In this document: positions 1 through 21,770 of the stretch, piece by piece
How positions within the stretch are numbered: position 1 is the first letter of the stretch
Layout: each line of letters opens with the position of its first letter
Source of the DNA: an uncultured Thermodesulfobacteriota bacterium
GTDB lineage: Bacteria > Desulfobacterota > WTBG01
Reading direction: 5' to 3'
Assembly: GCA_964580455.1 (NCBI GenBank)
Contig: CAZOKO010000003.1
Span: 1 to 52,716, forward strand
Length of the DNA: 52,716 nt
The notes under the pieces: generated by a model
What the model was told of the DNA's origin: nothing
Seen by the model: only the letters and a program-made list of their open reading frames with translations
Databases searched by the model: none
Program-made: the position numbers and the translations under genes

Positions 1-202
1 ATAGCATACACACCCTGTATTATCGATATTTTATTGAAACGTTATACTAGTATAATAATTTAATGCTATATCTAGCTAACACACAGATTTTTTAGTGTCA
101 AGAAATTTTTAGTTTTTTAATGAATATTTATTCAGTGTTGCAAGATTAAATATTTCAGAGCGATAGTTGTTTTCAAAATGGTTAAATGGGGGGCGCACAA
201 AC

Positions 203-236
203 AAAAAGCCGGAGCTTTTAAGGCTCCGGCTTTTTT
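203..236. terminator. Bidirectional rho-independent terminator-like hairpin
   Basis: GCCGGAGC (208-215) pairs perfectly with GCTCCGGC (223-230) around a 7-nt loop. The stem is flanked by AAAAA upstream and TTTTTT downstream. Confidence 0.6.
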
Positions 237-428
237 ACCTATTCAATTATACTTGAATAGTCATTTTCGGGCTCTTGATATTGGGACGCTGGACATACTT
301 CGTAGGCAAATCCATTAAACCTTACAATAGACTTTTTGCGTCATAGCCTAACATCCGCAGGTAAGCCGCAACGAAAGGCAAGCCATAAGAGAAGTGCCTG
401 TAAGTTCAGGGAATTTCTGTTTCTAAAC

Positions 429-515: not shown

Positions 516-1493
516 CTATCCCGCCTCGGTATCATAGTTGGGTGGCGCACAGTCGAAAGGAGTAGTGGCCAGAACATCTGGATCATCCGTCCAACCCATC
601 ATCCCGAACTTCATGTTTTTAGCTTCATAGCCTAGAAGATTGAGGACGGTACACGCCACCTGGCCGGTGTGTCCGGTATAGCAGTAAACTATAATTGTTT
701 TATCCGGATCAAGCTTTTCGAGGTTGTCCACTTCCGCAATGGTTCTCCAAGGAATATTGATGGCTCCGGGAACATGACCAACGGCATAATCATCCGCCGA
801 GCGGACACTGACAATGATGTAGTCGTCTGCCTGGCCTGGGTCATCAATAATCATCTTCACATCGGTTACAGAAATGACAGGACCCAGCCCTGAACCCAGA
901 TACGCCTGAGCCTGAGCCTTGGCTATAGCAACCACATCCATCTCTCCCGTTGCAATGACCGGTAGCTCGTTGTCTGCCGGAAGATCATTTGGCGTATCTT
1001 CCGTATCATAGTTGGGCGGTGCACAGTCAAAAGGAGTAGTGGCCAGGACATCTGGATCATCCGTCCAACCCATCATCCCGAACTTCATGTTGAGGGTATC
1101 ATAGCCCAAAACAGCAAGGATGGTATCGGCGACCTGCCCGGTGTGACCGGTGTAACAGTAGGCAATCTGTTTATCGGCATCTAGCTGGGCAAGGCTTGCA
1201 TCATCAGCAATCGTTTTCCATGGAATATTGATGGCTCCGGGAACGTGACCAACGGCGTAGTCATCGGGAGATCGCACACTCACGATATTGTAGTTAGCGG
1301 CTTCAGCCGGGTCATCAACAATCATTTTCACATCAGTTACGCTAATCACAGGCTTAAGATCTTCAAGAACAGCGTCAATCAATACCCTTAACGCCTCAAA
1401 CTCATCAACTACCATGCAGGAACTGGTCATGAAAGAAAAGCTAACAGCTAAAACAAGTACTCCCAAAAGTATTCGTGCTCGTTTCATTTTCAA
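516..1493 (-). CDS. Secreted (possibly lipoprotein) tandem-rhodanese sulfurtransferase with two near-identical rhodanese domains
   Basis: 325-aa ORF with an N-terminal signal peptide (MKMKRARILLGVLVLAVSFSFMTSSC). It has two copies of a rhodanese-like domain, each with GHVPGAINIPW and a CYTGHTGQ active-site loop. TAG stop. Confidence 0.85.
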   Translation of the reverse strand: MKMKRARILLGVLVLAVSFSFMTSSCMVVDEFEALRVLIDAVLEDLKPVISVTDVKMIVDDPAEAANYNIVSVRSPDDYAVGHVPGAINIPWKTIADDASLAQLDADKQIAYCYTGHTGQVADTILAVLGYDTLNMKFGMMGWTDDPDVLATTPFDCAPPNYDTEDTPNDLPADNELPVIATGEMDVVAIAKAQAQAYLGSGLGPVISVTDVKMIIDDPGQADDYIIVSVRSADDYAVGHVPGAINIPWRTIAEVDNLEKLDPDKTIIVYCYTGHTGQVACTVLNLLGYEAKNMKFGMMGWTDDPDVLATTPFDCAPPNYDTEAG

Positions 1494-1617: not shown

Positions 1618-2787
1618 TTATTCGGGGATAATGACCTCTTCATTCGCCTCCATCTCCCTTAAGAGGTCATCATACCCATAGCCTAGCCCACCATTGGCAT
1701 CCTTATAGAGTTCTATATCCTCTGCCCTTAGGTAATAGTCACTATCGTGACATGCAGCACCACAGCTTTCTCCTTCCTCCACTTCCGTTTGTGGTGTCCA
1801 TCGTTGGATATTATGCGGTGTTGTTAGTTTCCAGGTCGGCTCAGAGGTTTCGAAGTTTGGCAGGTCATCAATTCCCCATTCCTCGAATGTGTTGGGTGCA
1901 ACGGGAATATGCCTCACAGCGATATAGTCATAATCCTCATACCTGGAATTGTCATTCAGATAGTTTCTTCCAATTTCAAATGTCAAATACGAGGACCCTG
2001 TGATGCCTTCACCTCCCACATGACACCCATTGCAATTTTTGTAAGACTGGGAATGACAAGCCTGGCACGCAAGGGTTACACCAGAGTTCCCAAGCCAGTG
2101 TTGAGTATGATAGATGTTTTGATCGCTTACAGAGCTATGGCACGTCTCACATTGTGGAGCTACCGTATTGTTTTCATCATAACGGTAGGTCAACTCTGTG
2201 CCGTCACCGCCATGCATCTGATAACCGGAATGACAGAAATCACAGCGCTTGGCTAGAGTGATGTAGTGGTAATCTGCTTTGGTGCCCGGGTTTTCACCCG
2301 TATACTCTGCGCCGACACGAGACCCGTGACAGGCTGTGCAGTTTTCAGACATATCAGGAGTTCCCTTAAATTCATGAGACCAACCCTGTACAAATCCTCC
2401 CTGTACCGATCGAGGCCTGCTCACATGACATTGTCCACACGAGGCATGACATGTACCACACTCCATTCCGAACTCCTCTAATGCATGTTCATATCCCGGA
2501 TCTTTCAGACTGTAACCCGCCCTCAGTTCGAAACGCTTGAAATAACCTGCCTGTGAAAAATGGAGGCTTTGCTCAAAGTTTTCAACTTCATCCGGGTGAC
2601 AAGAAGCGCAGAACAGTTCAGGGTCTTCACTTGGATAGGGAACCAGATCTTCATGAGCTGCTTCCTTGTCAAAACGCTCCTGCGGATTCCCCAGATGACA
2701 CACGATACACTCAATTTCACCGTGGTTTGGATCTTCAAAAAATTCCTCGCCTACAAAAACTCTCTCCCATGGCTCCAACGGAGTCAC
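1618..2787 (-). CDS. Multiheme cytochrome c (9 CXXCH plus 1 CX3CH) lacking its own signal peptide
   Basis: Motifs CIVCH, CASCH, CGTCH, CGQCH, CTACH, CDFCH, CETCH, CQACH, CNGCH and CGAACH. The called start is a GTG 9 nt after an in-frame TGA. See the finding on read-through from 2797..2979. Confidence 0.85.
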   Translation of the reverse strand: MTPLEPWERVFVGEEFFEDPNHGEIECIVCHLGNPQERFDKEAAHEDLVPYPSEDPELFCASCHPDEVENFEQSLHFSQAGYFKRFELRAGYSLKDPGYEHALEEFGMECGTCHASCGQCHVSRPRSVQGGFVQGWSHEFKGTPDMSENCTACHGSRVGAEYTGENPGTKADYHYITLAKRCDFCHSGYQMHGGDGTELTYRYDENNTVAPQCETCHSSVSDQNIYHTQHWLGNSGVTLACQACHSQSYKNCNGCHVGGEGITGSSYLTFEIGRNYLNDNSRYEDYDYIAVRHIPVAPNTFEEWGIDDLPNFETSEPTWKLTTPHNIQRWTPQTEVEEGESCGAACHDSDYYLRAEDIELYKDANGGLGYGYDDLLREMEANEEVIIPE

Positions 2788-2796
2788 ACTTCCTCC

Positions 2797-2979
2797 TCAC
2801 CCTTCACCACTGCCCTCAGGATAATCTACCGGGTCGGCTATCTCTATCAAAAGGTCTTTATCGGTGTGACATCCAACACAACCAGTTACCAAAAAGTTTT
2901 CACAACTTGACAGATAAAGGCCTAATACCACCAGTAAAACAGTTCTCAGTAAGCTATTCATGCCAACCTCCTTTCTCAT
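2797..2979 (-). CDS. Small signal-peptide/lipobox monoheme ORF; probably the N-terminus of the downstream multiheme cytochrome
   Basis: 60-aa ORF with a hydrophobic leader and LSSC lipobox-like site, plus one CVGCH motif. It ends at a TGA (2797-2799) that is in frame with the ORF 1618..2787. Confidence 0.6.
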   Translation of the reverse strand: MRKEVGMNSLLRTVLLVVLGLYLSSCENFLVTGCVGCHTDKDLLIEIADPVDYPEGSGEG

Positions 2980-3617
2980 TATAAGGTTTTGTCAAAACAA
3001 ACCACAGATTCACCCCGTTAGATACCTACTATATAGCAGTTGAACTTTGTCAGATGTTAACCCTGTTAGATAAATGAGTCTTCCACAAGGTTTACCATCT
3101 AACGGGGGAACCACAGAGAATTATTTAAATATCAATAAGTTAGATGGTTTTACCTTCCCTCCCCTCTGTGCTCCCTTAAGTAAATTATTATTTGCTATCT
3201 ATTACCACTCCTACTTCCCTTTTATTCAATAAAATAATTTTTTATATCTATCCTTTAACTAGATTGCTGGACTTTCATAATTTCTTCATTTCCACTTAAG
3301 TTTTAAATTCTTGAATAAAAAACTGATTTTCTTTTAGAAAACTATTCTCTCTATAACTGTTCCTCCACCTTTATATCCTTAATCCTATCCCTTCCTCTCT
3401 TTCATGATAAACTCATTTTAAAGGAAATGCTTCTCGATTTTTACAAAACCAGGGAGTTCACAGAGTTTTTTAAATGTATGTTTTCTCTCTGTGTCCTCTG
3501 TGGTTTCATATTTTCTCCCATGCTTGCATAAAACTTTTGACAGTACACATTACAAATTATATGGGGTTTATTAATCTTACTAACACTCTCCTCATTTTTA
3601 GTTAAAAACTTTGTCCT

Positions 3618-4979
3618 CTATACTTCTATGCCAAATCTTTTTATATTCTTCCAGAGCGTAATCCTGCTATATCCGAGTAGTACTGCAGCTTTTGTTTTAT
3701 TCCCTTGAGTCATTTTAAGTGCATTGGAAATCCGTACCCTTTCATCATTTGTATTTCTTTTTTTGTCTGTAGTGATACTTTCGATCATCAATCTTTGTTT
3801 TATTTGTTGTGGAATATTGTGGAAACGAATGGTATCAGTCCGGCAGGTTAAAAAGGCATATTCAATGGTATTCTCAAGCTCGCGTATATTACCACGCCAG
3901 TTATATTTCATGAGCTGATCAATTGTATGTTGGTCACACTTAACTATAGGTTTCTCCCCTTGGCTACGCAATCTCTTTATGAAGTGCTCTACCAAAAGAG
4001 GAATATCAGTTTTTCGGTCTCTCAAGCGAGGGATAGTAAGAGGAATTTCATTAATCCGATTAAACAACTCCTCTAAAAATGATCTCTTATTTATGAACTC
4101 CTGGATGTCTTTCTTTGTTGCGGCAATTACCCTTACATCGATTTTTCGAGAAGCTTTTTCACATTTGGTTTCTAATTCTTTTGCCTCGAGAAACTTTAAT
4201 AGTTTTACTTGGAGAGAGGGGGGGATATCTGCGATCTCATTCAGGAAAAGCGTTCCTCCATCAGCCTCTTCAAGTTTGCCTTTTTTCTTACTTATTGTAC
4301 CATCTGGAGAGGAAATTTGATGACCAAATAACGCACTATCAAAAAGTGTCTCGGTCAGGGCAGTACAATCAACTTTAACAAATGGCTTGTTTTTCCTATG
4401 GCCTGTGTAGTGTATTGTCCGGGCAATAAGTTCCTTGCCTGTACCCGTTTCGCCATTTATTAGAATTGATGCATCGCTGTCTTTCGCTAGATCAATCAGA
4501 GAATAAATATTTTGCATGGTATAGTGATTGCCTATTATTTGGTAAAATGATCTTCTCCCTTTGATCTCCTGTTTTAAGAGGTCAATCTCACGTTCTCGCT
4601 CAACGAGTTCTGTTATGTCAACGATACTTTCAACTCCACCGATAACTTTTCCCTGATGATCTTTTAAAAGTTGTGCATTTTTAAGCAAATATTTGTCTTT
4701 ACCGTTCTTGGCAGTAACAACACAGCGCTTTCGAACTATCTTTTTTTCTGAAAAGAGGGGGCATACCCCATTTTTATTTAGCATTACTCCCATACAGGTA
4801 GGGCTGTTAAAAAAATCACACTTCTTTCCTAACACCTCTTCGTTTTTAAAGCCCAAGATATCCTCAGCAGCTTTATTCCAGGAGGTAATAACACGGTTCG
4901 TATCGACGGTAAAAAGACCATCAACCATGTTTTCAATAATTTCTGGGTGGTTATTTGTAAGGAGGGTCTTATTTGTCAT
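3618..4979 (-). CDS. PAS-domain AAA+ enhancer-binding-protein-family transcriptional regulator with Fis-type HTH and a degenerate GAFTGA loop
   Basis: N-terminal PAS-like region, Walker A GETGTGKE, Walker B GGTLFLNEI, and C-terminal HTH (KAAVLLGYSRITLWKNIKRFGI). QISSPDGT occupies the position of GAFTGA. Confidence 0.85.
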   Translation of the reverse strand: MTNKTLLTNNHPEIIENMVDGLFTVDTNRVITSWNKAAEDILGFKNEEVLGKKCDFFNSPTCMGVMLNKNGVCPLFSEKKIVRKRCVVTAKNGKDKYLLKNAQLLKDHQGKVIGGVESIVDITELVEREREIDLLKQEIKGRRSFYQIIGNHYTMQNIYSLIDLAKDSDASILINGETGTGKELIARTIHYTGHRKNKPFVKVDCTALTETLFDSALFGHQISSPDGTISKKKGKLEEADGGTLFLNEIADIPPSLQVKLLKFLEAKELETKCEKASRKIDVRVIAATKKDIQEFINKRSFLEELFNRINEIPLTIPRLRDRKTDIPLLVEHFIKRLRSQGEKPIVKCDQHTIDQLMKYNWRGNIRELENTIEYAFLTCRTDTIRFHNIPQQIKQRLMIESITTDKKRNTNDERVRISNALKMTQGNKTKAAVLLGYSRITLWKNIKRFGIEV

Positions 4980-5631: not shown

Positions 5632-6378
5632 CTAGAAAGAAGAAACCTTCTTCAGAAACTGTTTCCCCTTTTCACGCAGAGACTGTAAGTAAGCTCTTCT
5701 TGAACTGGAGCTTAACTCTGCTGCACTCGGCAACCCATAAAAAGAAGGATCTTTCTGTAACACATAGATCTGATGCAATCCTCCCGCTTCCTCTATACCA
5801 TACAGGTAGCCACCAATTGCGGCTTTTCGTGCCTGGGCCTGAGTTACCAGTGCGTCCAGATCACCAAATATAATGGCGCCACTGGGACAGGTTTTTGCAC
5901 AAGCAGGTTGTGGTGTGTCTCCTGTAACTGCACCCTCAGTTAGTCTATCCAGACATGCCCAGCATTTTTTAGACTTCGCGGATTCATCTGAAGTAAGGCG
6001 AGGTACTTCAAAAGGACAGGCGGAAACACACGCACCACACCCTATACACAATTCCTCATCCACAAATACAAAACCCGTAGTCGAATCTTTCTGCATTGCA
6101 GAAACAGGACATACGGAAACACAAGCAGCATCCGTACAATGCATACACTGTCTCTTACGGAATAACCATTCAGGATCACCACCTGAAGCTGTGGAAGAAT
6201 GAAATTCCACCAGGCAATACGTACTAGCAGAGAGGTCAGGAGGATTCTGGTAACCTGCACCCGCAGTGAAGAATGTTGTTTCTTCAGCTTCAAGCTCATT
6301 CCACTGTTTACAAGCCACCTGACAACCCCTGCAGGCAGTACACTTAGATGTATCAATTAACATCGCTTTATCAGCCAT
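5632..6378 (-). CDS. fdhB: Formate dehydrogenase iron-sulfur (beta) subunit, 4x[4Fe-4S] ferredoxin type, with no C-terminal membrane anchor
   Basis: Cys clusters CTACRGCQVAC, CMHCTDAACVSVCP, CIGCGACVSACP and CWAC...CAKTCP. It lies immediately downstream of fdhA, and its tail is hydrophilic. Confidence 0.85.
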   Translation of the reverse strand: MADKAMLIDTSKCTACRGCQVACKQWNELEAEETTFFTAGAGYQNPPDLSASTYCLVEFHSSTASGGDPEWLFRKRQCMHCTDAACVSVCPVSAMQKDSTTGFVFVDEELCIGCGACVSACPFEVPRLTSDESAKSKKCWACLDRLTEGAVTGDTPQPACAKTCPSGAIIFGDLDALVTQAQARKAAIGGYLYGIEEAGGLHQIYVLQKDPSFYGLPSAAELSSSSRRAYLQSLREKGKQFLKKVSSF

Positions 6379-6395: not shown

Positions 6396-9300
6396 CTATA
6401 TTTTTTCTATATTAACAAGAAAAGCCTTGTATTCAGGTATTGTAGTATTGGGATCACCAACATGTGGAGTCAGGCTATTAGCACTATCACCCGTAGCAAT
6501 ACCCTGGTACCCAAAATGCCATGGCAAACCAACCACTTCAACAGTGCTGCCGTTTATGCTTAACGACTTTATTCTGTCCGTTACCAGGGCATATGCCGTA
6601 ATGCTACCACGGGCAGAACTAACCGTTACCTTATCGCCGCTTGCTATACCCTTAGTAGTTGCCAGCGTCTCACTGATCTCACAGAACATGTCAGGTACAA
6701 GCTCACAGAGCCATGGCAGATTACGTGTCATAGCACCTGCCTGCCAATGTTCGACTACCCGGTAAGTAGTAGCAACATAAGGATATTGGCTCTTATCACC
6801 AACTACATTGCCGGACCAGATAGTAATACAGGGGTTATTCTGCTGACTGGACATCTGATTGGTAACAGGGCTTTCCAAAGGTTCATAGTGCTCTGGCAGA
6901 GGGCCATCGGGACGACCCATACCAAATATTCTACCCAGTCCCTCCGGCTTCATGATAAAGGCACCATAAGTTGGATCATTACCACAGTCTCTTACATCGC
7001 CGCCGACAAAACCCTCACCGTCATACCAGATTACCTTTTTACTCTCGTTCCACGGGTTGCCTGCTGTATCACATGATGCGCGGTTATAAATAATCCGCCT
7101 GTTGACCGGCCAGCACCATGAGAAGTTTGAGTGAAGTCCTATATCACTGGCATCATTGCTGGTGTCTTTTGTTGTTGTTCTGTAATCGCGGGCAGCCATA
7201 TTTCCATCCTCAGTGTAACATGCACAGTAGAGCCAGTTAGCGGAGGAGGTTGATCCATCATCTTTCAACATGGTAAACTTGGGAACAAGCTCACCTTTAC
7301 TGCCATCTTCAGTATCTTCGAGGAAATAACCGTTTATCCTCCTGGCCACCTCATGAACACTAATGCCGTCTTCTGCAACTTCACCTGCTTTTGTATTTGA
7401 GTAATCCCAGTCAAGGTGCTTAATTGGGTTATCTTTTGGATCAAAGCTCAACATATGCAAGAGCTTAAGCATCTCTCCCAGCTTCCCCAAGATCCAGAGG
7501 TCGCTCTTTGCCTCTCCAGGAGGATCAATTGCCTTATAGCGCCACTGCGCCCAGCGGCCGCTGTTAGTTATGCTTCCTTCCTTTTCAACGGATGACGCTG
7601 CCGGCAGGAGAAAGACCTCTGTTTTGATTTTTGAAGAATCAACACCAGGTCTTTTCCAGAAGGCTGCAGTCTCCGTCTCCCAGAGATCAGCTGCAATCAG
7701 CCAGTTGAGATTTGCCAGGGCGTCTCTTTCAAATTCGGCATTAGGACCGCCCACGGCTGGATTCTGGCCTATGGCGACCAGGCCTTTGATAGTACCTTCA
7801 GACATCGCCTCAAAGAGAGCAATGTGAGAATGGTCACCATAACGCTTGGGGAGATAATCATATGCAAAATCATTATCTGCTGTGGCATTCTCACCATAGT
7901 AATCTTTCAAAAGACTGACCATATATTTTTTGGTATGCTGCCACCAGTTGGTACTCTTGCCCGGGTTTATGGTAGCTGCTGCCTTCATCGCTACCCAGTC
8001 ATCCAGAGTCTGTTTGCTTGATGTCGGGCAGGGAAGATAGCCAGGCAGGATGTGATAAAGTATACAGTGGTCAGTTGAACCCTGAACATTAGACTCACCT
8101 CTCAGTGCATTAACCCCACCGCCGGCAAGACCCATATTTCCCAGAAGGAGCTGCAGCAAAGCAAAGGCTCGTATAGTCTGAACGCCTGTGGTGTGCTGTG
8201 TCCATCCCATGGCGTACATGATAGTGCCTACCTTATCAGTTGCACCGGTCGCACAGTAGGCAGCCGCAATTTCATTGAATTTAGCTTGAGATACGCCGGT
8301 GATTTTAGATACTACCTCAGGAGTATATCGCGACACATGATCCTTAAGCAGTGCAAATACACAGTCAGGGTCATCAAGATCCTCTGCTTTAACATTATTG
8401 TTCTCTGCATCCAACTGATACTGCCAGGTGGACTTGTCGTATGATTTACTGCCATCATAGCCAGTAAAAAGTCCATCCGTAAAACCAAACCCCTCGTTAA
8501 TCTTACAGAGGGCATTGGTGTGAACTTTTACATATTCATCATTGTAAAGTTCATTTTCAATCGCATATCTTACCATCCCGTTAATAAAAGCAATGTCTGC
8601 TCCAGGACGAATCTGGGCAAACATATCTGCTTTAGCCGATGTCCTGGTGAAGCGCGGATCAACGCTTATCAATTTGGCACCATCTTCCATTGCCTTGGTT
8701 ACCCACTTAAAGGAAATGGGGTGATTCTCTGCAGCGTTGCTGCCCATAATCATAATACAGTCACTGTTCTTGATATCAATCCAGTGATTAGTCATTGCCC
8801 CTCTACCGAACGACTCTGCCAGAGCCGCAACTGTAGCGGAGTGTCATATCCTGGCCTGGTGTTCTAAGTAGATTACTCCAAGTGACCTCATCAGCTTGGT
8901 GTAAAGATGGCATTCTTCATTGTCGAGTGCAGCCCCACCAATGGCAGCAATTGCCTCGGTGCGGTTCACCGTGTTTCCCTCTGAATCTTCTCTGGTAAAG
9001 TTGAAATCACGGGTCGTTTTTACCTTAAGTGCCATCAAGATCAGTGCCATAAACCAGGGAATTTCTATCCAGTCACCGCCCCAATAAGGGGGACGCCACA
9101 AAACTTTATCGAGACGTCGGTCATTGTTTGCTGTCTGGTAGAGTGAATTCCCCTTAGAGCAAAGTGAACCCTCATTGATTGGATGGTCAGGATCTCCCTC
9201 AGTATTAACAACCTTACCTCCGGAAGCAGTGACAACTATACCACAGCCACACGCACAGTATGGACAGATAGTTGTTGTCTCAGTTCCTTCTTTCGTCTTC

Positions 9301-9410
9301 AGTTTCCATGCGTAATTCTCCGCCTTTGCATCCTTTAGAAAGGATGGGCAAAGCATTACACCCATGGTAACTCCAGACACCTTTAAAAAATCTCTTCTGG
9401 TAACTCCCAT
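6396..9410 (-). CDS. fdhA: Periplasmic (Tat-exported) selenocysteine-containing formate dehydrogenase catalytic subunit; TGA at 8844-8846 read as Sec
   Basis: Tat motif MGVTRRDFLK. N-terminal Fe-S motif CPYCACGCG. The two track ORFs (8844..9410 and 6396..8795) are in frame across one TGA, giving EHQARI-U-HSATVAALAESFGRGAMTNHW. This is the canonical FdhA/FdnG Sec context. Confidence 0.9.
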
Positions 9411-9478: not shown

Positions 9479-9516
9479 AAAGGGAATTGAAGCTAATAAA
9501 TCCTTCAATTCCCTTT
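9479..9516 (-). terminator. Strong hairpin (terminator or attenuator) between fdhE and fdhA
   Basis: Perfect 14-bp inverted repeat AAAGGGAATTGAAG (9479-9492) / CTTCAATTCCCTTT (9503-9516) with a 10-nt loop. In the minus-strand RNA it is followed by CAAUUUUC. Confidence 0.55.
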
Positions 9517-9540
9517 GCAAATACAGCAGGTATTTTGATT

Positions 9541-9605
9541 GCTCAAAACCCCTTTCGGCCAGCCTTCCCTGAGGGAGTTAACTGGCTCGGGAACTACAAC
9601 TTTTT
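9541..9605 (-). promoter_or_regulatory. Candidate molybdenum/tungsten-cofactor (Moco-type) riboswitch aptamer in the fdhE-fdhA spacer
   Basis: Minus-strand RNA reads GUUCCCGAGCCAGUUAACUCCCUCAGGGAAGGCUGGCCGAAAGGGGUUUUGAGC. It contains CCGAGCC, a GCCAG/CUGGC stem enclosing a UCCC-UCA-GGGA hairpin, and GAAAGGGG. This resembles my recollection of the Moco RNA motif. It is followed by the 9479-9516 terminator. Not verified by a covariance model. Confidence 0.4.
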
Positions 9606-9642: not shown

Positions 9643-10575
9643 CTAATGCAGGGTCCTGCTCTTCCCGTCTGCCTTTAACTCATCAACAGACGGCGGAAAA
9701 AACCAGGACCTCTCATAACCCTCTTTTTCTGCCACTATGTCAAGATACATGGTGGCAAGGTCCTCTACTGAGGGAATAAATGCTCTCTTCTCATCACCTC
9801 CCTTTCTCTCATCTAGTGTTTTAATATACCTTTTGCACTGCTCACACACGTCAATTCGATAAGGACTCTTTTCTTCCTCCAGAAATTTCAGGCTTTTTTG
9901 ATCCACATTACAGCAGAAAGGGCACTTGATTCTCACAAACCTCCACTCAGTTCCACAAAGTGAACAGTAGAGTATCTTTTTACCAACTTCTTTCTCTAAC
10001 CTGGCAATCTGTGCTCCACTGCCGCAAACAGGACAGTAGTTCTTTAACCATACATCATCCACCACTTTATCCTTGAGCTGTTCTGCCACTGTTTCAAAGA
10101 AAGGCTTTGCCAGATTAAGAGAAACAAATATTAAGAGATCTTCAGCTACTCCGATTTCTTTTGCAAGAGAGTAAAAATAAGCACTGTCATGTTGGAAAAG
10201 ATTTTTGACCAGAGTGTTTAATTTAAGTCCTTTACTGCTTTCAGCATCAATAAGCCTTTGAATCTCTTCACTATCACTATTTTCATAGCTCTTCATAATT
10301 TCACATATATCCTGGAACAGGTCTTTAAGGTAAGTATCCTTAAGAGGTATGTTATTCAGGGAAATGAGGGGTTTGCCCTGCTCCATCTTCTCCTTTATCT
10401 CGTCTTCGGATAAAGAACATTGAATTTCTCCCTTAAGCAAAGTGCTTTTGATCTCATATTGTGCCTTGAAAATATCCCTGAAAAACGCAATTGAGTTTTC
10501 AGAAATGTAATCTTTTCCCTCAAGGCTATTTAGGCTATCTTCAACCTTATTCATATCTTCTCCGTATGTGTCCAT
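9643..10575 (-). CDS. fdhE: Formate dehydrogenase accessory protein FdhE
   Basis: 310 aa with four CXXC pairs in the C-terminal half (CPVCGS, CSLCGTEW, CPFCC, CEQCKRY), typical of FdhE. It sits directly upstream of fdhA. Confidence 0.85.
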   Translation of the reverse strand: MDTYGEDMNKVEDSLNSLEGKDYISENSIAFFRDIFKAQYEIKSTLLKGEIQCSLSEDEIKEKMEQGKPLISLNNIPLKDTYLKDLFQDICEIMKSYENSDSEEIQRLIDAESSKGLKLNTLVKNLFQHDSAYFYSLAKEIGVAEDLLIFVSLNLAKPFFETVAEQLKDKVVDDVWLKNYCPVCGSGAQIARLEKEVGKKILYCSLCGTEWRFVRIKCPFCCNVDQKSLKFLEEEKSPYRIDVCEQCKRYIKTLDERKGGDEKRAFIPSVEDLATMYLDIVAEKEGYERSWFFPPSVDELKADGKSRTLH

Positions 10576-11515: not shown

Positions 11516-12886
11516 TCATATGTTATATTTTTTTATAAAATAGCTCAAATTCCTTGGAGATATTCCAAGGATGCTCGCTGCTTTTTTCTTAACACCTTGA
11601 GTATCCTGCAGTGCCTTTATGATACTCTGCTTTTCGAATTGTTCCACCCTATTTTTTAAACTGTTGTTTCCTATCCCCAATAAGTTTTCTTCATCATTAA
11701 TACTTAATCTCCTCTTCAACTTATCCGGCAAATTCTCTTCCTGGATGGCATCACCTTTAGTCATCAATATTGAATGTTCTATTACATGTTCCAACTCTCG
11801 CACATTCCCCGGCCAACTATATTGCAACAACAAATTAAAAACCGTAGGAGAAACGTCTCTCACCTTTCTGTTGTATTCTCTATTATATATTTCTAAAAAA
11901 TGCTTAATGAGAAGCGGAATGTCTTCATGTCGGTCCTTCAAAGGAGGGAGATTAATAGGAACAACGTGCAATCTGTAATAAAGATCATCTCTAAATCTCT
12001 TTTCCCCCACCTCTTTATCCAGATCCTTATTGGTAGCAGCAATAATCCGAACATCAACCTTTATCAATTCGGTCCCCCCTACCCTGCGAAATTCCTTCTC
12101 CTGTAAAACTCTGAGTAAATTTACCTGGGACTTTGGGCTCATCTCAGCAATCTCGTCCATAAAGAGGGTGCCTTTATGAGCCATTTCAAATCTGCCTTCC
12201 TTCCTGGTTATTGCTCCCGTAAATGCCCCTTTTTCATGACCAAACAGCTCGCTTTCCAGAATAGTCTCAGGCAGCGCTCCACAACTCACTGTAATAAAAG
12301 GGTTGTCCTTTCGCAAACTGGCGTTATGAATAGCTCTGGCTAACAGTTCCTTCCCGGTGCCACTTCCTCCTTGTATCAGCACAGTGATGTTGCTTGGTGC
12401 AATGTTTTTTATGAGGGCATATATATCCTGCATCTTACTACTCTTACCAATAATGTTTTCAAACCTGTGGTGATCATGCAGTTGCTCTTTAAGAAGGATA
12501 TTTTCCCTTATGAGAGCTTGATGTTTAATGATCTTTTTTGTAATCATATCAATCTCTTCAGGGGAAAAGGGTTTTACTATATAGTCATATGCTCCTTCCT
12601 TCATGGCATTTACTGCTGTCTCTACTGTCCCATAAGCTGTCATAATAATTACTTCTGTATTAGGGTGTTCACGTTTCACATAACGGAGGAGCTCCAGACC
12701 ATCTATGCCTGGCATCTTCAAATCAGTAATAACAATATTGAAGTTCCCGTCTTCTATCGTCTTTATTGCTTCCTCTCCACTTGAGGCACCATAAACACGC
12801 CGGTCTTCACTTTCAAACCATTCAAGGAGAGAACTTCTCATGGTTTGATCATCATCTACTATCAAAATCTCACTTTTATGCTCCAA
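11516..12886 (-). CDS. Sigma-54-dependent two-component response regulator (NtrC family)
   Basis: Receiver domain (ILIVDDD...DLKMPG), AAA+ with GGSGTGKE, intact GAFTGA, and C-terminal HTH. TTG start overlaps the kinase stop by 11 nt. TGA stop. Confidence 0.9.
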   Translation of the reverse strand: MEHKSEILIVDDDQTMRSSLLEWFESEDRRVYGASSGEEAIKTIEDGNFNIVITDLKMPGIDGLELLRYVKREHPNTEVIIMTAYGTVETAVNAMKEGAYDYIVKPFSPEEIDMITKKIIKHQALIRENILLKEQLHDHHRFENIIGKSSKMQDIYALIKNIAPSNITVLIQGGSGTGKELLARAIHNASLRKDNPFITVSCGALPETILESELFGHEKGAFTGAITRKEGRFEMAHKGTLFMDEIAEMSPKSQVNLLRVLQEKEFRRVGGTELIKVDVRIIAATNKDLDKEVGEKRFRDDLYYRLHVVPINLPPLKDRHEDIPLLIKHFLEIYNREYNRKVRDVSPTVFNLLLQYSWPGNVRELEHVIEHSILMTKGDAIQEENLPDKLKRRLSINDEENLLGIGNNSLKNRVEQFEKQSIIKALQDTQGVKKKAASILGISPRNLSYFIKKYNI

Positions 12887-14522
12887 CTTCTTCCTCCCCT
12901 CCCCTTCCAGAACCAGAGCTGACCGTATCTGAAATGACTGGCAACAAAATGCTTACAGTTGTTCCCTCCCCTACTTTACTGCGCACTTTTATTTCTCCAT
13001 TGTGATTTTCAATGATACCATATGCTACCGAGAGCCCCAAACCGGTACCCTCACCTGCTTTTTTAGTGGTAAAAAATGGCGTAAATATCCTGGAGAAATC
13101 CTCTTCAGAAATTCCGCACCCCGAATCTTTAAATATTATCTCAGCAAACTTTGAGCTTTTTCTGGTAGTAATTTCAAGGATACCCCCCTCGGGCATGGCA
13201 TGGAAAGCATTTAAAATAATGTTTATAAAAACCTGCTGCATTTGGTGGGGATCTGCTACTATCCTGGAAGTTGAGGAGCTAAATTTTTTAACCAGTCTTA
13301 TCCTGTGATCAGATAATTGATGTTCTACTAGTTCAAGAGCATTATTTAAAACACCATTGATATCCACCACAATCGCCTCAGGCTCTTTTATGCGGGAGAA
13401 ATCCATAAGGCCTCTGGTTATGCCTTTACAGCGGTTGACTTCTTCTTCAACTGTAGCCAGATATTTCCTCAACTGAGAAATATTTAATATACTGGATTCA
13501 GAAGAATAGTTATCAATCTTTTTTATAGCCAGTTTAATATAGGTAAGTATGCTTCCTAACGGATTATTTATTTCATGGGCAACACCAGAAGCAAGTTGCC
13601 CTACAGCAACCATTTTTTCCGACTTAATTATCTGTTCCTGACTTTTTTTCAATTCTCTATTGGCTTTTTCTAAATGACGATTTACCTTCATCAACTCTAC
13701 ATTAAATTTGCGGCAGTCTTCAACCGCTATTTTAACTTTTTCCTGAAGTTCCTGATTAAACCGTGCCACCTTATCCATCATCAGATTGAAGCCCTTACTC
13801 AACTTGCCAAATTCATCCCTGCTTCCAATATCAACCCTGCTATCCAATCTACCTTCCGCTGCATTAGAAACAACTTTAGCCAGCTTTCTAATCGGTCGAT
13901 CAACCAGAATAAATACCAGCAATGCCAAAATTAAGGAAACAGCAAGAAATATAGTAATGGTGAAAAATATCATCCTGTTTCGTGCAGCACTCAACTCCTC
14001 ATCAAGCGGGAGAAGAGAAGTATCAACAACTAATACGCCTAATATTTTGTCCTGGTAACTATGACAAGCATTGCACTTATCCCCATTTCTGATTGGGTTA
14101 ACATTACGCATAATTCTTTCTCCGCCAAGTGCAAAAACTTTTACATCATCATGGGAATATGGTTTCTGTTGGTGACATATTTGGCAGGATTCTTCTTCTA
14201 TAGATAAAACCTTTCCAATATCTTCTTCTCTGGCAGAATAGACGATCCCCCCTCCTTTTTTTATAATCATAACGTGCTCAACATCTTTCTGTTCCCTTAT
14301 GATTTCAACGATCTTTTGTACATCTTTACACTGCTTTTTCTCCATTTTATATTCAAGTGTTTCCTTTATGATTGAACTTAATTGTCTGGAAGCCTTTTCT
14401 GCCATTTCTAAAGATTGTTTGCCACGGTCTCTATATATGATGTAAGAATAGGTGATTTGCGTCACCAGCAAAGTAACAACTACCCAGAAAATTATTTTTG
14501 TTCTTAAGCGAAAAGCTGGCAA
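12876..14522 (-). CDS. Sensor histidine kinase with a periplasmic domain carrying two CXXCH heme-binding motifs, HAMP, and HisKA/HATPase
   Basis: Two TM segments flank a periplasmic domain of about 150 aa with CQICH and CNACH. H-box VAHEINNPLG. N and G boxes are NAFHAM, DSGCGI and GTGLGLSV. TTG start. Confidence 0.85.
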   Translation of the reverse strand: MPAFRLRTKIIFWVVVTLLVTQITYSYIIYRDRGKQSLEMAEKASRQLSSIIKETLEYKMEKKQCKDVQKIVEIIREQKDVEHVMIIKKGGGIVYSAREEDIGKVLSIEEESCQICHQQKPYSHDDVKVFALGGERIMRNVNPIRNGDKCNACHSYQDKILGVLVVDTSLLPLDEELSAARNRMIFFTITIFLAVSLILALLVFILVDRPIRKLAKVVSNAAEGRLDSRVDIGSRDEFGKLSKGFNLMMDKVARFNQELQEKVKIAVEDCRKFNVELMKVNRHLEKANRELKKSQEQIIKSEKMVAVGQLASGVAHEINNPLGSILTYIKLAIKKIDNYSSESSILNISQLRKYLATVEEEVNRCKGITRGLMDFSRIKEPEAIVVDINGVLNNALELVEHQLSDHRIRLVKKFSSSTSRIVADPHQMQQVFINIILNAFHAMPEGGILEITTRKSSKFAEIIFKDSGCGISEEDFSRIFTPFFTTKKAGEGTGLGLSVAYGIIENHNGEIKVRSKVGEGTTVSILLPVISDTVSSGSGRGGEEEVGA

Positions 14523-15760: not shown

Positions 15761-16867
15761 ATGACAAGCTCACTTAGAAATGTTCTAATCTTTGCAAGTA
15801 TAATCTTAGCAGTAGCCATGATACCTTTTACAGGTAATTCTGCTGAGATTATGACCGCAAACGGTGTATCCACCTGCGATCTGTCTGGCAATCCCAGGAC
15901 GCATTTTAATCCTGGTGATGACATACGGTATGAGGTTAATTACACAATTGAAAATCCCATTGCATTTGTACTGATAGGCGGGAATGTTAACGGTGCTAAT
16001 CTCCAGGAGAATCTACACTGGCAATATGGAATATTATCTTCAGGCACTTATAATACCTTTTGGGATAAAAAATTACCTTCTGATGCAAGTGGCACAGCCA
16101 CAGTTACTATAATGTATATTGGTGTCATCGATGAAATTACAGTGAAAGAAACTTCATTTTCCATTGAGGAAGACACCCCCAACGAACCTACTGATGTAGG
16201 ATCAAATATCTGCGGGGCATGCCACTCAGAAATCTTTGATTCATTAAAGGATTCTGCACATGGATTTATAGAATGCGAATTATGTCATGGTCCTGGAAGT
16301 AACCATGCAAGCTCCCCTTCTGCAGATAATATCACAATTGACAAATCATCAGATCTATGCGGTCAGTGCCACACCAGGGGTGATGATCAGAACAGAATAG
16401 AAGTAGAAGATGGCCTGATAAAAAGCAACCAGCAATACGATGAACTGCTTAACGGGGGAAAAAGCTTCTTTAATTGTGTACAATGTCATGACCCCCACGT
16501 CAGTCTCAATTCAGACACTCATGATGCTATCACTTCCGATTGCAGTTCATGCCACAGTCAAACCATCAACCGGATCCATTCGGTAGCAGGTCTTGAGTGT
16601 CTCGATTGCCACATGCCCTACGCCGTAAAAGTATCAACATCCAGTAGAGAAGGAGATCATCTTAAAGGTGATGGCAAAAGCCACATTTTCACCATAGACA
16701 CAACTGCAAATCCCTCCAAGATGTTTTACCCGCAGAGTGGAAAAACTTTTTCAAACGGTTTTCTCACCTTAAACTTTGTATGTCTGGGATGTCATAACGG
16801 AATTCTTGCTAAAGAAAGGGAATTCGACTGGGCAGTACAAGGAGCAGCTCTTATACATTCTGAGTAG
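15761..16867 (+). CDS. Secreted heptaheme cytochrome c with an N-terminal beta-rich domain
   Basis: Signal peptide. Motifs CGACH, CELCH, CGQCH, CVQCH, CSSCH, CLDCH (followed by MPY as in NrfA-like proteins) and CLGCH. Confidence 0.8.
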   Translation: MTSSLRNVLIFASIILAVAMIPFTGNSAEIMTANGVSTCDLSGNPRTHFNPGDDIRYEVNYTIENPIAFVLIGGNVNGANLQENLHWQYGILSSGTYNTFWDKKLPSDASGTATVTIMYIGVIDEITVKETSFSIEEDTPNEPTDVGSNICGACHSEIFDSLKDSAHGFIECELCHGPGSNHASSPSADNITIDKSSDLCGQCHTRGDDQNRIEVEDGLIKSNQQYDELLNGGKSFFNCVQCHDPHVSLNSDTHDAITSDCSSCHSQTINRIHSVAGLECLDCHMPYAVKVSTSSREGDHLKGDGKSHIFTIDTTANPSKMFYPQSGKTFSNGFLTLNFVCLGCHNGILAKEREFDWAVQGAALIHSE

Positions 16868-18647: not shown

Positions 18648-20480
18648 TCAGAACGTATAATTCATCCCGAAACTTATAAGGTGTGCTGTTCCATCCAGTT
18701 CATTAACTTCTCTGTCATTGTAGTCTCTATAATTGTATTTGGCATAAAAGGAGAGGTAAGGCTTGTAGATATAATCCAGTCCAATGGAAGCATCAACGCG
18801 CTCTACATTAAGATCTGAGAATTCTCCCACATTACTACTGTAAATGCTGGAATCATAATCAGACTTGGAATCGGTGAAAGTAAAATTGCTGACAAGGGCT
18901 ATGGACCTGCTAAAGCGGTAATTAAGCGCAAGATTGTAGCAGTGACTCCTGTCATCATAACGAAGCCTTTCATCATAGAGGTCTATACTGTGATAGGTCT
19001 TATAATTTGTTCGTGTCTTAATCTCTGTATCGATCTGACTATAGGAACCAGTGATGATAAAATTATCCCTGGGTGCATACCATAAACTAAACATCATCTC
19101 CAGTCTTTCTTCATCTATCTCATAACGGTTACTATCAGCATCTTCATAAAGAACTGTTGAGGAAAGCGAAAGATTCCCTCTCGGATTCCAGTTGAGCGAA
19201 AACCGAATCTCATCTGTCCTGGTGGGCAAACTGGTCTGCGTTGTTTGAAACAATGTCCACTGCTCATTAAGAAAGGGGTCATTAACCCTCTCATTCTTGT
19301 AACGTATATTAAAATTAATCTTCCGATGAGGTCTGCCAAAAAGAGAAATGTCAAAGACCTTTTTGAATGTAGACTCCTCTGCACTATTACTGCGATCGAC
19401 ATCCTCCCAACGATAACTCCCTCTCAAAAAGTTCCTCTTCCACGGTCTGGTCCTGAAGGAGACTTTACTCCTCTTGACATCTTTGTCCATAGCACCGGGA
19501 ACTTTACTGTTAACATCATAGTCATAATGATTAAAATTGAAGGTGACATACTTTAAACTGGCAGTAGTAAAGCGAAATGCAAAACTCTCAAATTCACGTT
19601 CATGACGTGTATCTTGATTATGATTCTCTCCCTTCTCATAATCGAAACAGAAAGAAGACTGCAAAGGAAGTTCTGCCTTTGCCCTAAACTTATTTACGTA
19701 AGTTCTTGAATCTGCAATACTGTTATATTTCTGAAAGCCTTTCACAGGAAACGACGGAGCAGGATAACCATAATATGCTATGGGAGATTTTCCACCTTCA
19801 TTAAAGCTTCTCTGCAAATGGCTATAATTGAAGGTAAAAGAACCTACCGTTATTTCTGTCCCAACATTAACATCCTCAGTGGTCTGATCTATACGCCTGT
19901 TTCTGGAGGTAACATGACACTGTGCACATTTGTTCACCGTGGTAGCCTGTCTGTGACCTCGCTTATTCAACTGCCTGTAATTCGCATTCACCTTAAAGTT
20001 AGGAAGGAAGGGAATGCGAAAAGTATTATCACTTTTTATCTCTTCCCTGATGATAGCATTACTTTTACCTGCATCGAAGTCAGTAAAGAAATCCTGGTTT
20101 TCTAAAGGATCATGGTCAAGATAGTGTTTAAAACGGTTATATGATGTCTCCGATTGAAAAAGCCTGTTGACATCCAAATCCATCATATAATGCTGATCAT
20201 CCTTATCTTTGATATCACCACCCAGGTCCAAATACTTACTGCGTGTATGAGCCTTTAAAGAGAAATACCCCTCCATGCCTGGATCCAGTACATCATACTC
20301 CCCCACCTTTCCCCGATTACCATTCACAGTAGCATGGTGATACCCTATACCCGCATCAAAGGTATATTCTTCCTCCTCAAGCAAGTTTCCCGCCCAGCTA
20401 ACATTATACGGGGTAAAACTAATAAATGTTATGATTGCAAGAAAAAAGGCAAATATGAAACCAGTTTTATTAACCACCAT
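18648..20480 (-). CDS. Outer-membrane beta-barrel protein, MtrB/PioB-like partner of the upstream decaheme cytochrome; carries one CXXCH
   Basis: Signal peptide. Alternating aromatic/polar beta-strand pattern throughout. C-terminal ...GMNYTF ends in Phe, a typical OMP beta-signal. CAQCH at aa 185-189. It lies immediately downstream of a 10-heme cytochrome gene. Confidence 0.65.
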   Translation of the reverse strand: MVVNKTGFIFAFFLAIITFISFTPYNVSWAGNLLEEEEYTFDAGIGYHHATVNGNRGKVGEYDVLDPGMEGYFSLKAHTRSKYLDLGGDIKDKDDQHYMMDLDVNRLFQSETSYNRFKHYLDHDPLENQDFFTDFDAGKSNAIIREEIKSDNTFRIPFLPNFKVNANYRQLNKRGHRQATTVNKCAQCHVTSRNRRIDQTTEDVNVGTEITVGSFTFNYSHLQRSFNEGGKSPIAYYGYPAPSFPVKGFQKYNSIADSRTYVNKFRAKAELPLQSSFCFDYEKGENHNQDTRHEREFESFAFRFTTASLKYVTFNFNHYDYDVNSKVPGAMDKDVKRSKVSFRTRPWKRNFLRGSYRWEDVDRSNSAEESTFKKVFDISLFGRPHRKINFNIRYKNERVNDPFLNEQWTLFQTTQTSLPTRTDEIRFSLNWNPRGNLSLSSTVLYEDADSNRYEIDEERLEMMFSLWYAPRDNFIITGSYSQIDTEIKTRTNYKTYHSIDLYDERLRYDDRSHCYNLALNYRFSRSIALVSNFTFTDSKSDYDSSIYSSNVGEFSDLNVERVDASIGLDYIYKPYLSFYAKYNYRDYNDREVNELDGTAHLISFGMNYTF

Positions 20481-20670: not shown

Positions 20671-21588
20671 CTACCTCGTCAACACCCCTCTCCCCATTTG
20701 AGAAGGCAAATCACTTCCATGGATCTGCGAATGACACTGAGTACAGGATGTAATCAGTGTTGACATGGTAGGATGTATCCCTGCCATATCAATCCCACGA
20801 TGTCCTCGATGACAGCGCAGGCAAAGAAATGGCTCGCTCTGTTTTAAAAGATTATTAGCAATTGTTCCATGAGCATCATGGCAGATATCACAACCTTCCT
20901 CTACCGGAGGATGCTCATAGACAAAAGGTCCCTGCTTATCCGCATGACACTCAAAACAGAGATCATTAACAGACAAAGCCTTTAAACCATTTGGTTCCCC
21001 TCCATGAGTATTATGACACTCAGCACATTTCATCTTACCTTCTCTTATGGGATGGTGGGAGGGAAATTGTGCTCGTGCTCTCATTTGCTGGTGACAATCG
21101 TAACAGAGTTCGGGATCTTCCTTATACAACATTTTCTTTGCTGTTGTCTTATGTGACTTATGACAATCGTTACATCCCACATCACTTAAGGCATGAAGAT
21201 TACTTTTCCAGTGAATGAGGGATCCTTGAGCATGACATTTTAAGCAAATGGATGAGCTCTGAGCCGCCGTTAATTTACTAAAATTAATTATCTTCTCAAC
21301 ATCACCCCTTTCCATCACATGGGCACTCCCCGGCCCGTGACATCCTTCGCATCCTCTCTCACTGCCTGCAACTTCAAAACTGCGTATTTTGTAATGAATA
21401 GTTTCTCTAAAGTACTCAAACACATCTTCATGGCATACTGCACATGCTTCTGAACCAACATAGGTCGCATCGGGTAAAGTAACAACAGGAGCAACGTAGC
21501 TACTATATCGAGTACATGCGCTGATAATACAGAGTAAAAGAATATTGCTCCCGAAAATCCACTTTGGAATGTTGAATTTGGAAAACAC
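20671..21588 (-). CDS. Periplasmic decaheme cytochrome c (MtrA/DmsE/PioA-like)
   Basis: 305 aa with a leader containing an ISAC lipobox-like site. It has ten canonical CXXCH motifs: CAVCH, CEGCH, CLKCH, CNDCH, CYDCH, CAECH, CFECH, CDICH, CLRCH and CTQCH. Confidence 0.85.
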   Translation of the reverse strand: MFSKFNIPKWIFGSNILLLCIISACTRYSSYVAPVVTLPDATYVGSEACAVCHEDVFEYFRETIHYKIRSFEVAGSERGCEGCHGPGSAHVMERGDVEKIINFSKLTAAQSSSICLKCHAQGSLIHWKSNLHALSDVGCNDCHKSHKTTAKKMLYKEDPELCYDCHQQMRARAQFPSHHPIREGKMKCAECHNTHGGEPNGLKALSVNDLCFECHADKQGPFVYEHPPVEEGCDICHDAHGTIANNLLKQSEPFLCLRCHRGHRGIDMAGIHPTMSTLITSCTQCHSQIHGSDLPSQMGRGVLTR

Positions 21589-21770
21589 TTTTCACCTTAA
21601 CTGCAATAAGACGAGTTTATTGGAAAAATAATCTCTTGACATCTCTAGTAATATATAATATTTAGCAATCCTCAATTTGTAATTCCATACCAGATTCTTT
21701 TTAGAATTGCAAAGAATAATTCATGATTTTTTGTTTTTTTAAATTTGTTTCATTTATTATTACAGGGAAA

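Follow-up and report, generated by a model that had tools for sequence, protein, structure and literature searches.

An in-frame TGA on the minus strand of a 52,716-nucleotide (nt) stretch of DNA from an uncultured Thermodesulfobacteriota bacterium (contig CAZOKO010000003.1, positions 1 to 52,716; hereafter, the window) raises the question of whether two adjacent open reading frames (ORFs) for c-type cytochromes are two genes or one. The upstream ORF, 2979..2797 (minus strand), reads MRKEVGMNSLLRTVLLVVLGLYLSSCENFLVTGCVGCHTDKDLLIEIADPVDYPEGSGEG and stops at TGA 2799..2797. Past the TGA, the same frame continues with GGA GGA AGT GTG and a 389-codon ORF up to TAA 1620..1618, and its translation begins GGSVTPLEPWERVF... 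One heme-binding CxxCH motif (CVGCH) precedes the TGA, and 10 follow it (9 CxxCH and 1 CxxxCH, CGAACH). The original prediction had described a signal-peptide monoheme ORF in frame through the TGA with a leaderless 10-heme ORF, a layout that we likewise see on the minus strand, and its leading idea was a single exported cytochrome of ∼450 amino acids (aa) in which the TGA is recoded as selenocysteine (Sec). The conservation of the TGA in 77 of 80 related loci, the existence of Cys-containing homologs, and a covarying hairpin downstream of the TGA all support this idea. We are highly confident that the locus is a single gene whose UGA would be decoded as Sec, gene structure and decoding being judged jointly, and we are almost as sure of the explanation as a whole, apart from the function proposed below. 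The features of the predicted gene are as follows.

1618..2961, minus strand: predicted complete cytochrome gene, from ATG 2961 to TAA 1620..1618, 447 codons including Sec.
2902..2961, minus strand: predicted lipoprotein signal peptide MNSLLRTVLLVVLGLYLSSC, with lipobox L-S-S-C and the Cys codon at 2904..2902.
2866..2880, minus strand: heme motif 1, CVGCH, before the putative Sec codon and invariant in 76/76 relatives.
2797..2799, minus strand: UGA, predicted Sec codon in G-E-G-U-G-G, residue 61 counted from ATG 2979 and 55 from ATG 2961.
2769..2787, minus strand: hairpin GUGACUCC-GUU-GGAGCCAU, resembling a Sec insertion sequence (SECIS), with the loop GUU at 2779..2777.
1747..2709, minus strand: ten further heme motifs (9 CxxCH and CGAACH), with ten invariant non-motif His between them.

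Translation likely starts at ATG 2961 rather than at ATG 2979. The former has AGGAGG 5 nt upstream, and both this ribosome-binding site and the ATG are kept in relatives, whereas ATG 2979 is missing in the closest relatives (L081-L083). Thus, the single gene proposed originally was retained, but not its length of 453 aa counted from 2979, since a start at 2961 gives 447 codons. It is because of this start that the leader reads MNSLLRTVLLVVLGLYLSSC, and as this leader ends in a conserved lipobox, the protein is predicted to be a lipoprotein; the lipobox Cys is kept in 75/76 aligned relatives, and lipobox-like ends also occur in the upstream ORFs of the related loci. Heme motif 1 lies 8 residues past the lipidated Cys and the Sec another 23 residues on, and the peptide across the predicted junction would be EGSGEG-U-GGSVTPLEPWER.

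A homology search with the joined protein as the query gave 942 matches at E <= 1e-5. The best 120 of these had nearly all been called as proteins of ∼350 to 390 aa, covering ∼86% of the query and sharing the same cut point. A single-protein scan of genome contigs with P0001 retrieved no relatives, but scanning one genome per species (∼185,000 species-representative genomes) with an alignment found 444, and we analyzed the best 80 loci by translating each in frame upstream of the match and reading the aligned position. This position was occupied by TGA in 77 loci and by Cys in 2 (L024 and L028), and the residue was lost in 1 (L039). TAA and TAG were never found there: in the 78-locus set, all 78 stops were TGA within G-E-G-[TGA]-G-G. 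Each TGA-bearing locus has an upstream segment of 60 to 90 aa composed of a lipoprotein-type signal and one CxxCH. Among species representatives, the TGA carriers bear at least 10 phylum-level labels; most carriers of the family are uncultured KSB1, Calditrichota, Marinimicrobia, Gemmatimonadota, Krumholzibacteriota, Eisenbacteria, and Desulfobacterota. The frame downstream of the TGA is intact and highly conserved, and amino-acid conservation runs across the junction. The same layout with TGA at the same position in 77 of 80 species-distinct loci is far beyond chance.

The relatives without TGA are informative as to the identity of the residue. The full-length homolog P0038 (the protein of L028) is a single ORF that reads ...NAGEG-C-GGAVSPLEAW..., and both L024 and L028 read GEGCGG. 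Cys is also found at this position in the distant homologs P0126, P0129, P0147, P0163, P0174, P0175, P0186, and P0198, in the contexts GEGCGG, GGGCGG, GECCGG, DGCGG, and SCGG; in other full-length relatives, the residue is lost. The Cys-type orthologs (P0038, P0126, P0129, P0186, and others) are single ORFs, as the leading idea anticipated, and the arrangement named as its refutation, two separate genes with a leader on the second, is not shown by the orthologs. Such apparent alternation of Sec and Cys is the usual pattern of selenoprotein families. In L039 (Bacterium BMS3Bbin03, ∼3975-3995; P0065), the codon is replaced by GAG ATC CGG, giving GEG-EIR-GG without a Cys. The DNA of this locus, GGTGAGATCCGGGGCGGC, still contains a TGA, which is out of frame; either Sec was lost here, or the assembly has an indel.

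Another locus contains the motif twice. L085 (483-3023, plus strand) has one frame of at least 847 codons with two modules, two TGAs, and a single N-terminal signal peptide, and both TGAs stand in GSGEG-[TGA]-GGSVAPLEPWEKV; the contig ends within module 2. The C terminus of module 1 is fused to what is elsewhere the "small N-terminal segment," here that of module 2. Given the single signal peptide, module 2 would be made and exported only if both UGAs were read through. The tandem two-module version, for whose product 22 hemes and 2 Sec are predicted, is also represented by P0033.

The hairpin downstream of the UGA has the position and the evolutionary behavior expected of a SECIS. Its stem begins 9 nt past the UGA and its well-paired G-C core 11 nt past it, and this geometry matches the minimal SECIS of Escherichia coli fdhF and bacterial SECIS models (spacer of ∼11 nt, G/U loop). 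We counted pairs explicitly in an ungapped 78-sequence alignment (A2), the tested helix being formed by columns 19-26 and 30-37. Paired cells amounted to 80.1%, compared to 70.4% in column-shuffled alignments, and 0 of 500 shuffles reached the observed value; the proportion dropped to 37-56% when the 3' partner was slid by 1-3 columns. Double-sided changes occurred in 6 of the 8 pairs (42 cells). In particular, covariation links the wobble base of the Val codon to base 2 of a variable codon (G-C 53, C-G 7, A-U 4, U-A 3). Since a synonymous wobble base is paired here with the second base of a variable codon, coding constraints cannot yield this pattern. The apical loop is GUU in 56 loci, GGU in 13, and GCU in 9, so that its first G and last U are invariant. 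Most relatives form a strong hairpin (-16.6 to -20.9 kcal/mol, z scores of -2.6 to -3.9), and that of L001 is UGUGGAUCC-GUU-GGAUCCAUG. The original prediction had seen a weak 4-bp CUCC/GGAG hairpin and no convincing SECIS; those 4 bp turn out to be the apical part of the longer covarying hairpin, which lies at the expected distance. Of the three TGA-less loci, L024 (6/8 pairs) and L039 (5/8) have a degraded hairpin and L028 a full one (8/8), a sample too small to show a trend.

Sec decoding by the host is indicated by a second gene of the window, as the original prediction had noted: fdhA contains the canonical site HQARI-U-HSATV. UGA is not reassigned genome-wide, since TGA is the ordinary stop of 8 other long ORFs in the window. 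The UGA of the cytochrome gene would then be decoded by the standard bacterial SelB pathway, directed by the hairpin directly downstream. The Sec machinery of the host is deduced from fdhA only; selABD have been reported in metagenome-assembled genomes (MAGs) of KSB1 (PMC9012183). The fdhA gene (6396-9410, TGA 8844-8846) has a twin-arginine translocation signal (RRDFLK), and its Sec codon is followed by a hairpin of -21.3 kcal/mol. It belongs to a periplasmic formate dehydrogenase operon (6396-9410, 9494-9604, 5632-6378, and 9643-10575, all minus strand), which also holds a 4Fe-4S subunit and an FdhE-like gene; upstream of fdhA there is a Moco/Tungsten riboswitch (RF01055, 44.5 bits).

Several observations weigh against Sec decoding of the cytochrome gene. 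The hairpin of the window has 7 of the 8 consensus pairs and one A.C mismatch; it is weak (-5.7 kcal/mol versus a family median of -8.0), it is not the minimum-free-energy fold, and its z score is about 0. The sequence of the window alone would not have convinced us. RNAalifold found no consensus structure in the 78-sequence alignment, probably because two clades, comprising fourteen loci, hold the hairpin in a shifted register. A search of positions 2600-2900 against Rfam gave no match to SECIS or any other family, even at E <= 10. Neither selA, selB, selC, or selD nor any tRNA was found within the 52.7-kb window. Finally, the residue is lost without replacement by Cys in L039 and in several distant relatives and therefore is not indispensable for every member of the family. 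As to the shifted register, one clade has CCCGAGC-UGGAA-GCUUGGG, 3 nt further downstream, and the other GCUC-AGUU-GAGC (L045, L046, L050, L051, L054, L055, L060, and L061; and L030, L037, L043, L048, and L052). In these clades, the predicted SECIS is remodelled and the UGA is kept.

Three other readings of the TGA have to be weighed against this evidence. Under the first, the locus holds two true genes, a monoheme lipoprotein of 54 to 60 aa and a leaderless 10-heme protein translated from GTG 2787 by translational coupling behind the Shine-Dalgarno-like GGAGGA. The string TGA-GGAGGA-AGT-GTG of the window does resemble a stop, a Shine-Dalgarno sequence, and a start, as had been pointed out originally as counterevidence, and gene callers split almost all family members in this way, with ∼86% query coverage. 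However, the resemblance is not shared by the relatives: the sequence is GGAGGA in a single locus of 78 and GGCGGC in 40, any Shine-Dalgarno-like word is found in 2 of 78, and in 25 of 78 the Val codon at the supposed start is one that cannot serve as a start (GTC, GTA, GTT, or ATC). GGAGGA is rare because the Gly-Gly codons are usually GGCGGC. The window's own GTG, the putative start (2787..2785), is part of the hairpin and lies at the base of its 5' arm. Moreover, every stop is an in-frame TGA, conservation crosses the junction, the Cys-type homologs are single ORFs, and in L085 the N-terminal segment of module 2 is fused onto the C terminus of module 1. Hemes of the c type need periplasmic maturation (Ccm or CcsBA systems), and a separate downstream protein would have 10 such sites without an export signal. 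We therefore regard two genes as extremely improbable.

An error of sequencing or assembly, or a recent nonsense mutation, in a gene whose true codon is Cys (TGC or TGT) or Gly has a practically negligible probability. A single base change leads from TGC or TGT to TGA, and Cys-type relatives exist; yet the frame downstream is intact, and the TGA is present in 77 of 80 species representatives and, in addition, in four independent assemblies, made from different samples, of relatives that are 76-90% identical. With four assemblies carrying the TGA, neither a sequencing error nor a private nonsense mutation can account for it, and the broken gene considered in the original prediction was abandoned. 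It is also very improbable that the UGA is read through as something other than Sec, by near-cognate insertion of Trp, Cys, or Arg or by a lineage-wide assignment to Gly or Trp, with the hairpin acting as a generic stimulator of read-through. UGA is a Gly codon in some candidate phyla, and the neighbors of the position are Gly (GEG-x-GG). Against a reassignment stand the 8 long ORFs that end in TGA and the occurrence of carriers in many phyla with the standard code. Against non-Sec read-through in general, Cys is the only residue that close homologs without TGA show at the position (the Sec/Cys signature); the geometry of the hairpin, with its conserved loop G and U, is that of a bacterial SECIS; and the genome has a Sec codon in fdhA. 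Sec decoding of a single gene thus remains the preferred reading. The recoding mechanism itself is ordinary; what it points to is a widespread and apparently undescribed family of multiheme selenoproteins.

The predicted product is a lipid-anchored cytochrome, exported by the Sec secretion system, with 11 c-type hemes and a Sec in a Gly-rich loop (GEG-U-GG) that precedes a 10-heme core. Pfam gave only generic multiheme signals, with Cytochrome_C7 above the cut-off at 1.9e-08, and no NCBIfam model fits, the best being ExtM with 17 bits versus a cut-off of 800. No significant match was found in the PDB by sequence (phmmer; best, SoxA at E = 0.65) or by profile. An AlphaFold2 model of the Cys-type P0038 has a mean predicted local distance difference test score (pLDDT) of 77 and a usable core; searched against the PDB with Foldseek, it had no match at E < 1. 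A profile search of 1.84 billion representatives found 953 proteins at E <= 1e-3, and 166 (50%-identity clusters) at E <= 1e-30. Across 76 members aligned over their full length, all 11 heme motifs and 10 His outside the motifs are invariant. There is no invariant Met, and besides the Sec/Cys position, the only invariant Cys outside the heme motifs is that of the lipobox. As 11 heme motifs face 10 invariant His, one heme is not bis-His ligated, as expected of a catalytic site, and the predicted Sec is the only conserved chalcogen residue available near it. We consider it conceivable but improbable that Sec ligates one c-type heme from the distal axial side, heme 1, which shares an N-terminal mini-module with it, being the simplest case; a His/Sec catalytic heme would result. 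Such a heme would hold Se-S adducts from a partner rhodanese (described below) during turnover and, if confirmed, would be the first natural selenolate-ligated c-type heme. The family would then represent a second class of heme-selenium sulfur reductases, of independent evolutionary origin and with members in many uncultured phyla. We also looked for a ligand swap, that is, a linker His or Met in homologs without Sec or Cys. Some have one, but linkers of Sec-type members often hold His too, and this criterion was not used.

Nearly all members of the family appear in the public databases in two pieces, an orphan mini-ORF and a leaderless protein of ∼370 aa that is named "hypothetical" or "cytochrome c family." Correct annotation would change where this abundant respiratory protein of anoxic sediments is predicted to reside and what chemistry it is predicted to perform. 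We found no description of an 11-heme Sec cytochrome family in the searchable literature, within its limits. A review of prokaryotic selenoproteins from May 2026 (PMC13188914) lists, as cytochrome types, only ExtKL, the GSU2204 family, and an octaheme tetrathionate-reductase family. The octaheme (TIGR04315) and GSU2204 (NF041027) families resemble the 11-heme cytochrome in being CxxCH proteins with a UGA-encoded Sec and differ from it in heme number and architecture; neither model matched the window protein (E <= 1) or P0038 (E <= 0.1).

The closest functional parallel is ExtKL. Mihara et al. (Sci Adv, August 2026; PMC13510729) established that GSU2937-2936 of Geobacter sulfurreducens (ExtKL, MccSep) is a pentaheme selenoprotein that reduces polysulfide and, less well, selenite, and that functions in sulfur respiration in Geobacter. 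Catalysis takes place at a His/Cys-ligated heme beside Sec325, which lies in a C-terminal immunoglobulin (Ig)-like domain; structures are available (PDB 9WT8-9WTC), and the corresponding NCBIfam model is NF040886. The extHIJKL cluster also encodes a rhodanese lipoprotein, ExtH, and an outer-membrane barrel, ExtI (PMC6148476). Like MccSep, the protein described here would be an extracytoplasmic multiheme c-type cytochrome with one UGA-encoded Sec and a downstream hairpin, annotated as two ORFs, and in both families Sec-type and Cys-type members are interspersed. ExtH and ExtI are paralleled here by a rhodanese, a putative barrel, and extra cytochromes. In contrast, MccSep has 5 hemes rather than 11; its Sec lies in the Ig-like domain at the C terminus (D-G-U-P) and not near the N terminus (GEG-U-GG, residue 61/453 when counted from ATG 2979); it is a soluble periplasmic tetramer and not a lipoprotein; and it ranges mainly over Desulfobacterota and Nitrospirota, whereas the family described here occurs in KSB1, Calditrichota, Marinimicrobia, Gemmatimonadota, and others. 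Sec multiheme cytochromes were established experimentally only in 2026, with MccSep, and the 11-heme family would be a second, sequence-unrelated one.

The parallel has weaknesses. There is no detectable sequence or profile similarity to MccSep: NF040886 gave no match at E <= 1, phmmer did not retrieve 9WT8 or 9WT9 from the searched library, which contains both, and a profile of alignment A3 run against the PDB gave E = 1.5. MccSep has a heme-ligating Cys, whereas the 11-heme family has no second invariant Cys. The rhodanese of the window is not an ExtH equivalog (NF040901, 19.2 bits versus a cut-off of 200), and in the model of P0038 the pLDDT is below 50 for residues 26-75, the Cys included. 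We infer that the 11-heme cytochrome is functionally analogous to MccSep/ExtKL acting with ExtH, the protein itself being unrelated.

By this analogy, we tentatively propose that the protein is an extracytoplasmic reductase that depends on Sec and acts on sulfane sulfur or polysulfide, an assignment that we hold with somewhat less than even confidence; selenite could be an alternative substrate. The enzyme would act outside the cytoplasm alongside the neighboring rhodanese lipoprotein, which would capture, as a Cys-persulfide, the sulfane sulfur of polysulfide, elemental sulfur, or thiosulfate. The selenolate would attack this persulfide, or the substrate directly, to give a Se-S adduct, and electrons from the heme chain would reduce the adduct and free sulfide. 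The absence of a second conserved Cys leaves two options: either Sec combines the roles of Cys239 and Sec325 of MccSep, possibly through heme ligation, or the Cys of the rhodanese is the second chalcogen. The recurring link with rhodanese suggests a convergent use of selenium and heme for sulfur-sulfur bond chemistry.

Other known systems are partly similar. In Sud/Psr-type polysulfide respiration, a rhodanese-like sulfur transferase feeds the reductase. That system and the one proposed here share an extracytoplasmic rhodanese and a terminal reductase of sulfane sulfur, the reductase being a molybdopterin enzyme in the former and a multiheme selenoprotein in the latter; rhodanese as a sulfur supplier is also cited in PMC6148476 (reference 75). 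TsdA, SoxAX, and DsrJ have a chalcogen side chain at or next to a c-type heme that serves as the nucleophile or adduct carrier for sulfur compounds, but in these proteins it is Cys and not Sec, they have no sequence similarity to the 11-heme cytochrome, and Sec ligation is hypothetical in the latter. A Sec-ligated cytochrome P450 (PMC11703216) is likewise a naturally occurring heme protein with a UGA-encoded Sec in place of Cys, and it came to light as a truncated annotation; it differs in being cytoplasmic and in having a b-type heme with Sec as the proximal ligand, whereas the hemes are of the c type here and a ligand role of Sec is hypothetical.

It is less probable, and on balance unlikely, that the protein is Sec decoded but performs another chemistry, either oxidation of thiosulfate or sulfide in the manner of TsdA and SoxAX or reduction mainly of selenite, tellurite, or other extracellular acceptors; in the latter case, the rhodanese would serve in selenium rather than sulfur trafficking. 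The His/Cys-heme enzymes TsdA and SoxAX are oxidative (cited in PMC13510729), MccSep reduces selenite as well (PMC13510729), and the Ext cluster has been implicated in selenite and tellurite reduction (PMC5877670; PMC6148476). There is also a faint NCBIfam likeness of the cytochrome to ExtM and ExtS, and the rhodanese weakly resembles the rhodanese domains of selenouridine synthases. However, these NCBIfam matches lie far below the cut-offs, and the KSB1, Calditrichota, Marinimicrobia, and Desulfobacterota MAGs that carry the gene come largely from sulfidic anoxic habitats, as inferred from the titles of the records.

The genomic context of the cytochrome gene was examined by clustering and annotating the ORFs of the 80 loci and the window (n = 81). 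In the window, the order is activator (4979..3618), cytochrome (2961..1618), rhodanese (1493..516), and terminator-like hairpin (235..198), with the following neighboring features.

516..1493, minus strand: tandem-rhodanese lipoprotein, 325 aa (Pfam Rhodanese PF00581, 1.1e-29), with two CYTGHTG active-site loops.
3618..4979, minus strand: regulator with PAS, sigma-54 activator, and helix-turn-helix domains, upstream of the cytochrome gene; a homolog is present in 34/81 loci and in L081-L083.
198..235, minus strand: terminator-like hairpin and T run, -21.2 kcal/mol, closing the two-gene unit.

A tandem-rhodanese lipoprotein of ∼335 aa adjoins the cytochrome in 77/81 loci, usually immediately downstream and, in some Calditrichia, upstream. 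A putative outer-membrane barrel of ∼400 aa and two further multiheme cytochromes are found in 44/81 loci. The PAS/sigma-54 activator likely regulates the cytochrome-rhodanese unit. No match to the sigma-54 promoter (TGGCAC-N5-TTGCW, <=3 mismatches) was detected in 2980-3617, and overall counts equaled those expected by chance. A simple scan missed the terminator because its T run was counted into the stem.

The gene of this candidate for a novel barrel (cluster c3, loci L007-L078, e.g., L032 6672-7877) lies ∼1.2 kb downstream of that of the rhodanese. The protein carries a signal peptide and ends in ...HLSW, with an aromatic residue last; it has no Pfam or NCBIfam match, and its gene always precedes that of a multiheme cytochrome of ∼294 aa, often followed by a small one.

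The two halves of the window rhodanese are 78.5% identical to each other, and therefore the internal duplication is recent; compared to the rhodanese partners of related loci, the protein is only ∼28-31% identical. The canonical partner rhodanese has left a trace just downstream, at 242-372 (minus strand): its C-terminal ∼45 residues persist there as a frame-shifted relic, which over 19 residues shares 79-89% identity with L001, L002, and L005. Given this relic and the divergent rhodanese, the partner gene appears to have been replaced in the lineage of the window. In a distant member of the family, P0194 (715 aa), the cytochrome is fused at its C terminus to two rhodanese domains, and Tyr (GEGY) takes the place of Sec or Cys. 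Probably because of such fusions, several truncated cytochromes carry the Joint Genome Institute (JGI) name "thiosulfate/3-mercaptopyruvate sulfurtransferase."

A cytochrome-rich electron-transfer island lies ∼15 kb from the 11-heme cytochrome gene and encodes an MtrB/PioB-type outer-membrane porin, an MtrA-like cytochrome with paired CXXCH motifs, and two more multiheme cytochromes (18648-20480 and 20671-21588, minus strand; 15761-16867 and 21723-22847, plus strand). Between the fdh operon and this island sits a second sigma-54 system (11516-14522, minus strand), composed of a HAMP histidine kinase and a response-regulator/sigma-54 activator.

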